Positions 49,299 to 61,585 of a stretch of DNA of 64,000 bases are shown here, piece after piece (within the stretch, counting starts at the first letter, position 1; each line of letters begins with the position of its first letter). The notes under the pieces were generated by a model, which was given only the letters and a program-made list of their open reading frames with translations, was not told where the DNA came from and ran no database searches. Location: assembly GCA_951406725.2 (NCBI GenBank), contig OX597818.1, forward strand, positions 17,918,001 through 17,982,000. The letters are read 5' to 3'. Both the position numbers and the translations under genes were made by a program. Source of the DNA: Octopus vulgaris. Lineage: Eukaryota.

Positions 49299-49522
49299 AA
49301 GAAGAGCACAATTGTGATTTGTAATAGATGGGGATTGACATTGCATATTTAATCGAACAAATTGAACAATATTTTGACAGATTGTCTATCTTCCTCAGGT
49401 TCAAAATGTGAAATGTAAAGAACCCAAGGAAGACAGACAATCTGTTGAAACGTTGTTCAATTAATTCAATTCAATAAGCAAAGTCAGTCTCCATTTATTA
49501 CAAATCACATTGCACTCTTCTT
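49299..49522. mobile_element. ~225-bp palindromic element with outward-facing minimal hammerhead motifs
   Basis: Arms 49299-49402 and 49420-49522 are imperfect reverse complements. The arm consensus is AAC CTGAGGA A GACAGA caa TCTGTC GAAAC GT T GTT. Confidence 0.8.
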
Positions 49523-49624
49523 GCTGTTTATTTGAACTCAGAACATAGCGATGGGCAAAATACCACCAAGCATTTTGTCCAGCATGCTAATGATTCTGCC
49601 AGCTCGCCATCTTAATAACAATCA

Positions 49625-49937
49625 GCGCCGTCTAGACTGGCTTTCGTGCCGGTGGCATGTAAAAAGTACCATCCGAACGTGGCCGATGCCAGTGCCGCCG
49701 AGACTGGCTTCTGTGCCGGTGGCACGTAAGAAGCATCAATCCAATCGTGGCCGTTGCCAGCCTCACCTGGCACGTAAAAATCACCCACTACACTCTCGGA
49801 GTGGTTGGCGTTAGGAAGGGCATCCAGCTGTAGAAACACTGCCAGATCAGACTGGAGCCTGGTGCAGCCTTCTGGCTTCCCAGATCCTCGGTCGAACCGT
49901 CCAACCCATACTAGCATGGAGAACGGACGTTAAATGA
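49625..49937 (+). mobile_element. RTE 3'UTR copy (family A)
   Basis: Matches the reverse complement of 31545-31850. Confidence 0.85.
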
Positions 49938-50839
49938 ATAATAATAATAATAATAATAATAATAATAATAATAATAATAATAATAGTAATAATAATGTTA
50001 TTTTCATTATTTAGTCAGATTATTATTTTTTTATTCTAGGCATCTGAGACTGACAGGAAGGAGAAAGGTTATCCTGAAACTAGATACCTGGCCAAATGCT
50101 TATTATAGAGTGGACTCTGCTAAAGGCACTTATGACACAGGTGGTTCTTCATTGGACAATGGATTAAGTTCACCACCAAAGAATACAGAATGCAAAAGAG
50201 CCTGACTGCAAGGATTTTCACAATCCACTGCCCTAGACTGGTAATTAGTCCAGGAACCTCACTGTAACATTTGGTATGTCTTGGAAATTTTTAGACCTGT
50301 TGTAGCCTATCACTATTCAGCTATTTGTTGGTATATGTGGGTGTGTACTGTGTGGATAAATTGTGCATGAGGGGTGTGGAAGTCAAAGTGATTTGAATTG
50401 ATCCTCAATGTACTACTGATGTTTCACTTAATTTGCAGGTAATAAAAATTAAACAGAGAGCTCAGGCAAAATTTGAACTCAAAACACATAATTTAAACAC
50501 AACAAAGCACTAGGCTAGCTTCTCTACTCGTGTCTGTCAACATTAGTGAAACTAAAAAATTAAATTATTTATTACTGTTACTTGATGTATAGTACTGCAT
50601 TATTTTATAAATGCTGAAGATATATACAGAATAAGATCTACTTTGGCAAGATTTGAATCCAGAACTATAAAACAACAATAAACTGATCTATAATCCAGAT
50701 TGGTTTCAAAATTTGGCACAAGGCCAGCAATTTTGGGGAGGGAATAAGTCAATTACATCAACCTCAGGGTTCATCTGGTGCTTATTTTATCAACCCCAAA
50801 GGGATGAGAGGCAAAATCAACTTTAATGGAATTTGAACT

Positions 50840-51140
50840 TGCCGATGCCAGCGCTGCCGGCCGATGCCAGCACCGCCTAGACTGGCTTCCATGCCGGTGG
50901 CACGTAAAAAGCACCAATCCGATCGTGGCCATTGCCAGCCTCACCTTGCACCTGTGCCGGTGGCATGTAAAAAGCACCCACTACACTCACGGAGTGGTTG
51001 GTGTTAGGAAGGGCATCCAGCTGTAAAAACACTGCCAGATCAGACTGGAGCCTGGTGCAGCCTTCTGGCTTCCCAGATTCCCGGTTGAACTGTCCAACCC
51101 ATGCTAGCATGGAGAATGGACGTTAAACGATGATGATGAG
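50840..51140 (+). mobile_element. RTE 3'UTR copy (family A) inserted in a family B SINE
   Basis: The SINE B sequence stops at gaatttgaact (50839) and resumes at gtaaagatggatgaaatgcc (51142). Confidence 0.85.
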
Positions 51141-51260
51141 AGTAAAGATGGATGAAATGCCATTAAGCATTTCACCTGGTGCACTAACAATGGGGTATGA
51201 GTATACTTACAGGTTATACAATGGTAAAATACCGTCTCAAAAAGTTGTGTCTAACCAATA

Positions 51261-51490
51261 CTTATTTCTTTACTACCCACAAGGGGCTAAACACAGAGGG
51301 GACAAACAAGGACAGACAGATGGATTAAGTCGATTATATCAACCCCAGTGCGTAACTGGTACTTAATTTATCGACCCCGAAAGGATGAAAGGCAAAGTCG
51401 ACATCGGCAGAAATTGAACTCACAACTTAACGGCAGATGAAATACCGCTTGGCATTTCGCCTGACGTGCTAATGATTCTGCCAGCTCGCT
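51261..51490 (-). mobile_element. family B SINE
   Basis: Reverse complement of 9598-9832. Confidence 0.9.
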
Positions 51491-58230: not shown

Positions 58231-59399
58231 ATATATATAATGGGAAGCTTTATGAAAATAAACAAAAGATGAAGGCAGGTGGAATACAAACAAACAATTG
58301 TATTAGTATGGCGCTCAGGAATATAAATAAAACAAGTCTTATATATATATATATATATATAAATAAAACAAGTCTTATATATATACATACACACATATAT
58401 ATATATATATATATATATATATATATACATACGTGCTGTGGGCACGTAACAAACACCATCCGATCATGGCCGTGCCAGCCTCGCCTGGCACCTGTGTCGG
58501 TGGCACATAAAAAACACCCACTACACTCACGGAGTGGTTGGCATTAGAAAGGGCGCCCAGCTGTAGAAACTCTGCCAGATCTGACTGCTAGCATGGAAAG
58601 CGGACGTTAAACGATGATGATGATGATGATGATGACATACATATATATATACATACATACATACATACATACACACACACACACACACATATATGTATAT
58701 ATATATATATATATGCATTATTATAATTTTAATGTCCACTTTTCTATGCTAGCATAAGCTAGACGGAATTTATTGAAGCAGAATTTCTATGACCAAATGC
58801 ATTCTCTGATACCATCCATCAGACATTTCCAGGCAAAATGATATTTTCCCATGGCCACACATGTTTTAATGGGAAACAGGAAACAAAGGACACTGCTTGT
58901 ATAATAGTGATGTTCATATACAACTATTGCACAATGTCATGACACAGACACAAAAATACAAACACTCATACTTATTATGTATATAGTATTTACAAATACA
59001 TGTGTGCATATGTGTCTGTGTGTGATAGTACACACACAGACACATATATATTTCTTTAGACACATGCATACTTATACACATAATTATACACTTAATTACT
59101 TCTATCATTTGAAAATATATTCTATACATAATACAATACATTGATTTCAACTTTTGGCATGAGGCCAGTAATTTCGAGGCAGGGAGTAAATCGATTACAT
59201 TGACTCCAGTGCTCAACTGGTACCTATTTTATCGACCCCAAAAGAATGAAAGGCAAAGATGACCTTGGTGGAATTTGAACTCAGAACATAAAGACGAACA
59301 AAATGCTGCTAAGCGTCTTGCCCAGCATACTCACAATTCTACCAGCTCTCTGCCTTAACTTAATACAATATATTGCGACCAAAATTGAAGTATAATGAT

Positions 59400-59635
59400 T
59401 TCCTATTTCTTTATTGCCCACAAGGGGCTAAACATAGAGGGGACAAACAAGGACAGACAAAGGGTTTAAGTCGATTACATTGACCCCAGTGCGTAACTGG
59501 TACTTAATTTATCGACCCCGAAAGGATGAAAGGCAAAGTCAAACTCGGCGGAATTTGAACTCAGAATGTAAAGACAGACGAAATGCCGCTAAGCATTTTG
59601 CCCCGCGTGCTAACATTTCTGCCAGCTCACCGCCT
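59400..59635 (-). mobile_element. family B SINE with 17-bp TSD
   Basis: attgaagtataatgatt flanks both ends. A second copy lies at 59146-59357. Confidence 0.9.
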
Positions 59636-61140
59636 ATTGAAGTATAATGATTCCTACACTCATTCAGTTTGTCATTTAACAGCAACAAGACACACAAGTT
59701 AATTATTATATCTGGATATTAAAGGGGTTAAACCTAAGATGATGCACACCACCCTATGCAAACACAGCACCAAATCTAATACTATTAGTTGAATATATGC
59801 TAAAGGTACCAACTTGAGACAAGACACACCACATTATATAAATAGACTACTAAATCAAATGCAGTCACTATTATGAATGTTAAATTACTTGTTAAATCTC
59901 AGTTAAGAAACACTTCTCTAATTGATATACATACATCAGTATGTCTAACACAATTAGTATGAAAACTAACAATATTTAGACCTCAATCAGGATACACCAC
60001 ACCATTCTTTATAAATACACCAGTATATCTAACGCCATTAGTATAATGATTGTTAAAGTGATCATAAGAATGACATGAATCTCATGATGCATATGATAAT
60101 TTGTCATAATAATAATTCCCAGAAGATTCTAGAACATAATCACAACAATTTGATAAAGCAAAGAATCAGGAAGTTGTAATTGTTAATACAAGAAACTCAA
60201 TTAAATGTCTGCAACACACATATATATAGATACGTTTGTATATATATTTATAATATATATTTGCATTGTGTGTGTGTGTGTGTCTATAATTCATCATAGC
60301 TGAAGCTTTACAAACATTACTCAAATTTTGTTGTTTTTTATTCTTGAGATGATCAACAAAAACTAGATATTAGCAATCTAATTTTTACAAAAATGTTTTG
60401 AAAGAATCAGTCAGTTGATGTCGGTGATACTAAAACAGGCAGTACCATGACAAATCCAGACATTTCAGTTGCACTCAATCTCCTCCACAAGGATTGCTTA
60501 TTATCAGCACTACTAAAGAAAACTCGAAATATATGGATTTCTTTTTGTGTGAATACTGTGATCTCTATAATTATCACAATGCTGCTATGATCAAACTTGC
60601 ATTTCCCTTTCTAGTTACAATGAATTCTTTTACTAAAATTTTGGTTATTTTCCCTCTCTTTTTCAACATTCATCATTAAGATAATGTTCCTTTTCTCTTC
60701 ACTTCAAGTGTAATTTTAAGAAATTATAATTTCTTAGTCCACCATATTAATTATTTTAGCACCAACTTTGATATATGGGTTGCATACAGCACAAGTTATT
60801 TTTCTATATTTTTCATTATGTATGTAATATAAGTTATTTTTATACAGCAAGTAAAAATACTTTATCTTTATGTATATTTGCATTGAGTATTCATTCTTTG
60901 CTAGCACAAACTATACACACCATATGTACATATCTACAAAGAATATATTGTAATTTCCAAGCATAATACATGATCATGGTAAGATGAGTAGTGTTCATTT
61001 ATGTGAATGACTGTGTAAAATTATACCTTCTTTTAGAAAAATGGCTAAGCTATTCTTTTCATTTCTAAATTAAAATGAAAGTACACAGGAGTATATAGTG
61101 TATATATATAACTGTTTATCTATCTATCTATATATATATA

Positions 61141-61320
61141 TTCAATAATGGTTTGGCTCATCCACCATGACTTAAAGTTTCATGGGTGTGTGCTATACAC
61201 CTAACTCATCAGAAAATAGGAGCAAACTCTGTTCCTAGTATCTGATGAGATGAGCATGCCTGATATGCAGCCATGAAACCTTAAGTCATGTGGTGCTGAG
61301 GCAAATTGCTATTAAAAATA
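61141..61320. mobile_element. ~180-bp palindromic element with a hammerhead motif in each arm
   Basis: Plus: CTGATGA g atg...cat GAAAC cttaa GTC atg (61242-61290). Minus: CTGATGA g ttaggtgt...acacccat GAAAC tttaa GTC atg. Central hairpin taggagca/tgttccta; TA-rich flanks. Confidence 0.8.
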
Positions 61321-61439
61321 TATGCCTACCAAATGCATTGAGTCCTGCTTTCTTTTGTTTGTTCACTCACTATATATATATATATAATGTTTTGAGTCAT
61401 TTCCTTTAATTGTAATTGCAAACACAGATATATATATAT

Positions 61440-61585
61440 ATCAGAGGTAGCTGTTACAGAATGAAATATGAGCAGTCACCATACTTCATTCCATAACAGC
61501 TACCTCTGATGAGCACAGGATTGCATAACTGGATTGTTACCTAACACTCCATTGAATCCATAGTGTGAAACTGATTGGTAAGATC
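61440..61585 (+). ncRNA. hammerhead motif preceded by an inverted copy of its own 5' flank
   Basis: CTGATGA gcac a ggatt...aatcc ata gtgt GAAAC tgattg GTA agat (61506-61584). The 17-bp perfect stem atcagaggtagctgtta/taacagctacctctgat spans 61440-61510. Confidence 0.75.

Follow-up and report, generated by a model that had tools for sequence, protein, structure and literature searches.

We analyzed a 64,000-nt stretch of Octopus vulgaris DNA (contig OX597818.1, positions 17,918,001–17,982,000 of the forward strand; hereafter the window), animal DNA of 36% GC that is rich in microsatellites, copies of short interspersed elements (SINEs) and broken long interspersed elements (LINEs). The window contains four mini fold-backs, designated E1–E4, and a neighboring 3.3-kb palindrome of a Penelope-like element (PLE) at 35965..39352. 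Self-BLAST of the window returned inverted repeats at 49299–49522 (E1; 78% identity, E = 5e-42), 51731–51978 (E2; 70%, E = 5e-23) and 61134–61323 (E3; 71%, E = 2e-10), together with one confined to 61440–61510 at E4 (81%, E = 5e-11). With E values from 5e-42 to 2e-10, far beyond chance, the four inverted repeats proposed by the original prediction, a reading of the letters alone, are genuine.

E1 (49298..49523) is a head-to-head repeat with arms of about 105 nt, 81% identical by global alignment, around a 17-nt spacer; the arms of E2 (51712..51997) are 68% identical and 3 nt apart; those of E3 (61134..61323), whose left end lies in (TA)n, are 70% identical around a 5-nt loop. E4 is lopsided: an inverted arm of only 31 nt on the minus strand (61440..61470), which joins (AT)n, faces a plus-strand main arm at 61470..61628, with 90% identity and a 9-nt spacer. 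The end at 61585 originally assigned to E4 was not upheld, as the element continues to about 61628. Spacers were set by eye, and that of the PLE palindrome is 1 nt. Transitions accounted for 14 of 19 arm substitutions in E1, 22 of 35 in E2, 14 of 24 in E3 and 3 of 3 in E4, as expected of initially identical copies that later decayed. Among the 19 local inverted matches listed for the window, E1–E4 and the PLE were the only contiguous fold-backs of at least 60 nt; smaller inverted repeats at 24634–24668 and 23872–24058 are without a hammerhead score. The four minis contain no open reading frame (ORF), and their sequences are mutually unrelated, as had been claimed, with pairwise local scores of 13–21 between elements versus 49–111 between the arms of one element.

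Every arm was scored for a type I hammerhead ribozyme in both reading directions, against 600 dinucleotide shuffles per arm and 1686 background tiles. The score used a loosened second-core threshold, and the p-values are optimistic because it was composed after E1–E4 had been seen. Seven of the eight mini arms and both PLE arms scored outward above their shuffles (p ≤ 0.007), the exception among the mini arms being the left arm of E4 (p = 0.73). The nine positive arms scored 29–35.5 outward, all ten arms scored at most 28 inward, and a score of 29 was reached by 4 of the 1686 background tiles, one of them a genuine solo hammerhead at 40290. The predicted outward-facing cores thus stand for seven mini arms, those of E2 being weak; E4 carries a single hammerhead, because its 31-nt left arm stops at CTGAT inside the core.

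The type I core (CUGANGA...GAAA...UH) is intact in both arms of E3 and in the right arm of E4, absent from the left arm of E4, altered at two or three positions in the arms of E1, and altered in E2 by T3 plus one or two further changes. Stems I and II are good in E1 and partial in E3 and E4, and stem I is missing from E2; stem III with loop 3 is palindromic, reading AACGTT in E1 right, ACTT-G-AAGT in E2 right and ACTT-T-AAGT in E3 left, and is decayed at CpG in E4. The minimal hammerhead of E1 right (49418..49460, plus strand) has its core at 49424 with two mismatches, an unpaired A between positions 9 and 10.1, a 6-bp stem II, no loop 3 and a GUU; that of E1 left (49362..49404, minus strand) has an intact first core at 49398, a 6-bp stem I and a decayed second core. 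In E3 the cores at 61242 (plus) and 61212 (minus) stand beside decayed stems I and II, and the left stem III is letter-identical to that of Penelope-6/8/14_HM in the available part of File S2 of PMC8557442. The main arm of E4 has intact cores at 61506 and 61567 and a 54-nt stem-loop II; at 61515 contigs of its family have G, and the TG that precedes GAAAC in the window is CA in them, which fits a putative ancestral G10.1–C11.1 pair. E2 is the weakest case: each arm holds TTGATGA, a long spacer (about 70 nt between the cores) and a palindromic stem III of the ACTT-G-AAGT type, with T at C3 in both arms, an unrecoverable stem I and best parses that differ between the arms; a compact alternative near the outer ends, found by eye, gives a 6-bp stem I but has C at position 8 in both arms. 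A strict hammerhead descriptor gave one to three matches per setting, all within fold-backs, and missed E2, E4, both left mini arms and the hammerhead at 40290. That last hammerhead (40290..40386, plus strand), our solo control, has intact cores, a 5-bp stem I, a 62-nt stem-loop II and a palindromic stem III; it ends in (TA)n at about 40415, has no inverted arm, and makes 40290–40415 probably another PLE 3' end.

The PLE palindrome serves as the reference. Its arms are 98% identical, each carries the 3' half of a reverse transcriptase–endonuclease (RT–EN) gene and a hammerhead (39196, plus; 36058, minus), and the whole lies inside (TA)n. The palindrome proper spans 35965–39288, with 1.67-kb arms; the left end stops in (TA)n, and the right end runs about 65 nt further as a tail with a hairpin at 39283–39322. 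The encoded product comprises the 3' half of RT and a GIY-YIG endonuclease with a CxCX5C linker, a CxxC and a CxH (as CPH). As CxCX5C, CxxC and CxH are among the marks of the Hydra clade in the available text of PMC8557442, the element would on its sequence belong there. Pfam assigned no family to its two ORF pieces or to a second, old and broken Hydra-type PLE at about 29540–31150 (plus strand), in which we observed RT and endonuclease remnants and found no hammerhead or inverted arm. Insertion into (TA)n, a strong but not universal preference of the Hydra clade, is seen for the PLE, E3, E4 and the solo hammerhead and not for E1 or E2: E1 adjoins (GAA)n at its left end, E2 adjoins (CA)n at its right end, and among the fold-backs (TA)n occurs only at E3, E4 and the PLE.

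At the center of the PLE palindrome, both arms contain a nested 8-bp hairpin (37612–37660) that replaces conserved RT codons. The residues before DFY read K-N-H-I, whereas D occupies position −3 in 77 of the 78 motif-bearing homologues (of 113 found); the hairpin is an 8-bp copy of adjacent coding sequence and takes the place of the conserved F-D of the RT motif. No further 8-bp hairpin occurs within 1330 nt of the PLE arm. The center is likely the scar of a double snap-back, and because both arms share the apparently non-native hairpin, one arm was seemingly copied from the other after a small first snap-back.

Copies of E3 and E4 were sought in contigs of four runs from four related organisms (1030–1818 contigs per run), aligned to 60300–61985 at 80% likeness. 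Over 61554–61610 the summed depth of the E4 family was 24,910, against 14.4 on the flank (run X2), with the same shape in all four runs; summed depth of aligned contigs is no copy number, but read plainly it points to a family with copies in the order of a thousand. The copies end at 61616–18 or 61627–28 and pass into (AT)n or a shared tail; 58, 45, 28 and 39 contigs in the four runs continue upstream of 61470 with common, non-palindromic sequence. Strand-changing joints numbered 9 among 15 listed of 37, at nine different pairs of places, each in one or two contigs per run. Because its copies extend unmirrored and turn back variably, E4 is the terminal 3' stretch of an abundant retroelement family and not a fixed palindromic element; the mirror arm is peculiar to this locus.

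For E3, the depth at the center bin compared with the flank was 25.7 versus 14.4, 13.7 versus 13.7, 3.1 versus about 3.4 and, in run X14, 44.8 versus about 15–23, whereas the hammerhead end reached 195, 701, 32 and 144 in the four runs; relatives at this likeness match the hammerhead end and hardly the center. Copies less than 80% alike are invisible in such an alignment, and the test of the E3 family is therefore limited. The full length of E3 is spanned by one contig of organism E, which has 9 differences over 175 nt and flanks that do not align; it is probably the same locus, because its divergence equals that of the flank (22 differences in 410 nt) and it has the same 38-nt overhang as a record of organism B. 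Neither E3 nor E4 showed an empty site in the contigs of the four runs, none of the listed pieces covers the stretch from end to end, and no RNA dataset carrying E3 or E4 was found among the runs listed. A 19-letter E4 pattern searched in viral contigs gave five matches, which we took as chance. The high abundance originally expected thus applies to the 3' end of the E4 family and not to palindromes as such, with four minis in 64 kb. A separate multi-copy repeat lies at 61782–61895 (summed depth about 840–1200 versus 14.8 in X2), with a relative at 13902–14002.

We compared these elements with 81 Hydra-type loci (L numbers) from metagenome contigs. Hammerheads in such loci sit 86–377 nt past the endonuclease match; in their alignment 92.5% of the cells were paired, a value reached by none of 500 shuffles, and the stem III layouts seen here match those of Hydra hammerheads, both published and in these loci. 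A twin of the minis, L039:1824–2119, folds back over 296 bp and bears two outward hammerheads, both intact and of 37 bits, with (TA)n on its left and a tail on its right; it lies amid nested PLE pieces in an unrelated animal contig and was alone in bearing real hammerheads among 11 palindromes checked in related loci. Inverted 3'-end copies among the 81 loci have spacers of about 40 to about 1850 nt, and each of the four inspected inverted pairs (L007, L010, L034 and L039) has its tail on a single arm. No viral relatives of the Hydra alignment were found among 60 candidates. We also observed Hydra-type PLEs with hammerheads and nested inverted repeats in prokaryote genome records (L085 and L086, the contig labeled as a bacterial metagenome-assembled genome), probably animal DNA in the bins.

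The optional tail contains a recurrent motif, GCTC..GAGCACT, which occurs within 110 nt downstream of 28 of 42 hammerheads (38 of which have at least 100 nt of room) and upstream of none of the 42. It forms a conserved bulged hairpin about 25–55 nt past the hammerhead (for example L010:3001–3041 and L039:2113–2147) and is tandem, about 60–75 nt apart, in L006, L007, L033, L038, L049 and L073. Two inner pairs outside the search pattern covary, one being C-G in 15 of 28 and U-A in 13 of 28, counts that kinship inflates. We propose the hairpin as a candidate recognition signal, as RNA or DNA, for the Hydra protein. The best match of the tail model in the window is the right tail of the PLE (21.7 bits, E = 6e-4). 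E3 has a likely one-sided tail at 61324..61370 (plus strand), followed by (TA)n, which has 21 of 26 aligned letters in common with the PLE tail, an alignment score equaled by 8 of 6040 background tiles. The PLE and, by its two termini, the E4 family clearly combine a one-sided tail with an inverted, 5'-truncated copy; in E2 the combination is weak, in E3 it is seen by alignment, and in E1 it is doubtful. A generic tail-hairpin pattern proved useless, as 416 of 1066 background tiles match it.

Taken together, these results suggest very strongly that the minis are stumps of PLE 3' ends and, with a more modest degree of confidence, that their mirror arms arose by self-priming; each of E1–E4 is likely a dead insertion, cut extremely short at its 5' side, from a Hydra-type PLE family of its own. 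Following published PLE biochemistry, the PLE protein would nick AT-rich or simple-repeat DNA, and reverse transcription would begin at one of two sites near the RNA's 3' end, leaving the tail optional. The piece copied is the 3' terminus with its hammerhead only, beginning 4–36 nt upstream of the core. The 3' end of the cDNA may then pair back on itself and be extended, giving a head-to-head repeat with a tiny spacer. Cutting or joining of the new arm would follow where the sequence is AT-rich, in most cases ahead of the tail; in E4 it would have come after only 31 nt, where 2 nt (AT) match. The arms, 10–32% divergent today and mostly by transitions, have decayed since. The head-to-head layout itself turns the hammerheads outward, since they sit close to the 3' end and each outer end is a 3' end of the element. 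Of the two origins that the original prediction had offered, minimal products of a PLE fold-back insertion pathway are supported by this 3'-end anatomy, by the E4 family and by the L039 twin, whereas for the second, a non-autonomous class of palindromic ribozyme elements, the variable centers of E4 are a contradiction, and E3, whose relatives match the end and not the center, gives no support.

Several observations weigh against this interpretation. The minis bear no resemblance to the PLE of the window, and no protein-coding parent was tied to any of them. An independent covariance model, trained on 36 distinct hammerheads that other animals carry in their Hydra-type loci (metagenome contigs), gave only 11.4 bits for E3 left, 11.1 for E4 right and 8.8 for E1 left (E = 1.4–8.5), and E1 right, E3 right and E2 were not among its 20 matches in the window; its top hammerhead there was 40290–40386 (23 bits), outside any palindrome. 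Related-locus hammerheads outside its training set reach up to 57 bits. Both young PLE arms are also low, in the same range as the three mini arms (8.8–11.4 bits, E = 1.4–8.5), so that family differences (long stem II, U4C) account for part of the shortfall alongside decay. Of the 180 Rfam matches at E ≤ 1, the 150 listed include no hammerhead and are all to hairpin-shaped miRNAs. The tail model misses E3 and E4 and is weak for the other two minis: the one-sided hairpin of E2, just outside its left arm (51672..51711, minus strand), scores 9.7 bits (E = 3.3, rank 3 of 12), and the possible motif at the right end of E1 (49470..49522, plus strand) scores 9.0 bits (E = 5.3, rank 4 of 12). Furthermore, E1 possibly has tail-like sequence on both arms and adjoins (GAA)n, not (TA)n. 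The strand-changing joints of the E4 family come from alignment at 80% likeness, where repeat artefacts are possible, and come without an orientation; the non-native status of the PLE center is judged from homologues at most 57% identical, not from a consensus of its own family.

The strongest competitor, which we hold to be possible yet on balance unlikely, is a PLE protein acting as a dimer: it would nick the two strands and prime a cDNA on RNA from each of the two start sites, the truncated cDNAs being joined head to head by microhomology. The anole Poseidon protein, which cuts and extends both strands, is a predicted dimer and has two start sites bounding the tail (PMC11167929), speaks for it, as do the one-sided tails and the long, variable spacers of L007, L010, L034 and L079. 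Indeed, the spacers of about 900–1850 nt in L007, L010, L034, L055 and L079 fit two independent primings and fold-back alike, which counts against self-priming. Against double priming, the 1.67-kb arms of the PLE lie 1 nt apart and share a non-native hairpin, which calls for copying of arm from arm, and the left arm of E4 begins inside the core and not at a normal 3' end. We favor fold-back, on the 1.67-kb arms with their 1-nt spacer and the shared center hairpin, evidence that comes from one element and distant homologues. That host repair, through template switching and without the element's enzyme, later duplicated and inverted single PLE ends is the most improbable account of all: host polymerases also leave nested snap-back hairpins, but ends with a hammerhead carry all five contiguous fold-backs of at least 60 nt in the window, the many SINE copies carry none, and in related loci the short arm stops at the tail boundary.

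Mobilization of a non-autonomous palindromic ribozyme element as a unit also appears very unlikely. Short spacers recur, and the organism E contig covers the whole of E3 with unaligned flanks; against this, E4 copies lack a fixed palindrome point, E3 relatives do not cross the center, the full-length E3 match is probably the same locus, and a hairpin RNA would bury the ribozyme. Similarly, there is only a slim chance that E1 and/or E2 belong to discrete non-autonomous palindromic families whose entire hairpins are copied by a Hydra PLE protein through recognition of the tail hairpin; if so, E1, with a tail motif possibly on both arms, would be mobilizable from either strand, a retro-equivalent of a miniature inverted-repeat transposable element (MITE). 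Extremely unlikely is the reading of the minis as DNA-transposon MITEs or chance palindromes into which hammerhead cores have been read, despite the low covariance-model scores, the palindromes without hammerheads in Hydra-type loci and the possibility of TA or TA-repeat duplications where both flanks are (TA)n. The outward polarity is strict in 9 of 10 arms, the only target-site duplication of at least 4 nt is TTTA at E2, none being present at E1 (the flanks of E3 and E4 are uninformative TA repeats), and the E4 family ends in (AT)n at two alternative termini, as a retroelement does, with variable ends and centers. For E3 and E4 the MITE or chance reading is largely refuted.

Folding prediction put the cost of forming the ribozyme fold at 37.6, 38.6 and 22.4 kcal/mol in the full elements E1, E3 and E4, compared with 2.7, 18.7 and 7.0 kcal/mol in single arms. 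A transcript across a fold-back reaches the antisense arm first and contains one sense hammerhead per strand, so that no partner is available for the reported dimer requirement; minimal PLE hammerheads are described as inactive as monomers and weak as dimers in the available text of PMC4209133. Cleavage on two strands is therefore unlikely, because the inter-arm hairpin outcompetes the ribozyme fold and minimal hammerheads are weak. The claim that each element places a cleavage site on transcripts of either strand is accordingly weakened by decayed cores, by the single sense hammerhead per strand and by the prevailing inter-arm hairpin. The hammerheads of E1–E4 are predicted to be passengers that do not cut in the fold-back setting, and read-through RNA would give a long imperfect hairpin, through which decayed fold-backs could supply double-stranded RNA.

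Other repeats surround the fold-backs. Broken LINE pieces with endonuclease, RT or zf-RVT matches by Pfam lie at 32660–34359 (minus), 17524–17997 (minus), 47170–47553 (plus) and about 52080–53330 (plus), and among the same listed pieces is what is presumably a mariner transposase-like remnant, with no Pfam match. Several high-copy SINE-like families (for example 6001–6240, 9592–9836, 51258–51489 and 59400–59635) often end in (AAT)n or (GAT)n, and a SINE-like fragment adjoins E1 at 49530.

The layout of E1–E4 is already published in parts, as opposite-strand pairs, head-to-head copies and proposed self-priming, and a new element class is probably not needed; as they stand, the minis are ordinary PLE debris. 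In Schistosoma mansoni, minimal hammerheads on opposite strands 100–700 bp apart were read as truncated PLEs in 2014 (PMC4209133), and, as far as the available text goes, such pairs resemble the present fold-backs in that minimal hammerheads of type I lie as neighbors on opposite strands; that text gives no orientation or junction analysis. The hammerheads described there have an unpaired base between 9 and 10.1, a palindrome of 15.2–16.2 with loop 3, low activity and a need for dimers. E1 shares the no-loop stem III and the unpaired base after A9 with the metazoan minimal hammerheads of that source, whereas the stem-loops II of E2, E4 and the solo hammerhead at 40290 are far longer (54–72 nt) than those of the S. 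mansoni type. In endonuclease-bearing (EN+) PLEs, head-to-head inverted pseudo-long terminal repeats, junction palindromes and a one-sided tail, with self-priming as the proposed cause, appear in the accessible part of a 2013 report (PMC3846280); the head-to-head geometry, the junction palindrome and the tail on one arm are shared features, and the minis are reduced to the terminal 100–160 nt. That report proposes priming on an antisense RNA template, whereas the present data point to copying of the first cDNA.

Within the Hydra clade, the available text of PMC8557442 (2021) lists for Penelope-13_HM an inverted, 5'-truncated copy together with a hammerhead on each strand, and stem III in the corresponding part of File S2 is a 4-bp palindrome round one or two bases. 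That form is present in the PLE, E2, E3 and, CpG-decayed, in E4, whereas E1, without loop 3, differs from every Hydra entry seen there. By eye, 45 of 69 RT residues of the PLE match those of Hydra-1_Obim as far as it is available, both being of the (TA)n-inserting Hydra type, and no hammerhead of the window equals that of Hydra-1_Obim. Animal non-LTR retrozymes, in the accessible text of bioRxiv 10.64898/2026.07.22.740005 (see also PMC7229834), are like the minis short, non-coding, PLE-derived and equipped with a type I hammerhead; they are head-to-tail tandems with at least two same-strand hammerheads, and we rejected an assignment of the minis to them on account of the inverted layout with one hammerhead per strand. 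A literature search that covered few subscription papers and no Repbase found neither the Hydra tail hairpin nor a palindromic non-autonomous PLE class. Relative to these systems, the covarying tail hairpin provides a concrete candidate for the signal recognized by the Hydra protein, and junctions like the PLE center, with a scar in both arms, allow a genome-only test between self-priming and double priming, a choice that the literature leaves open.

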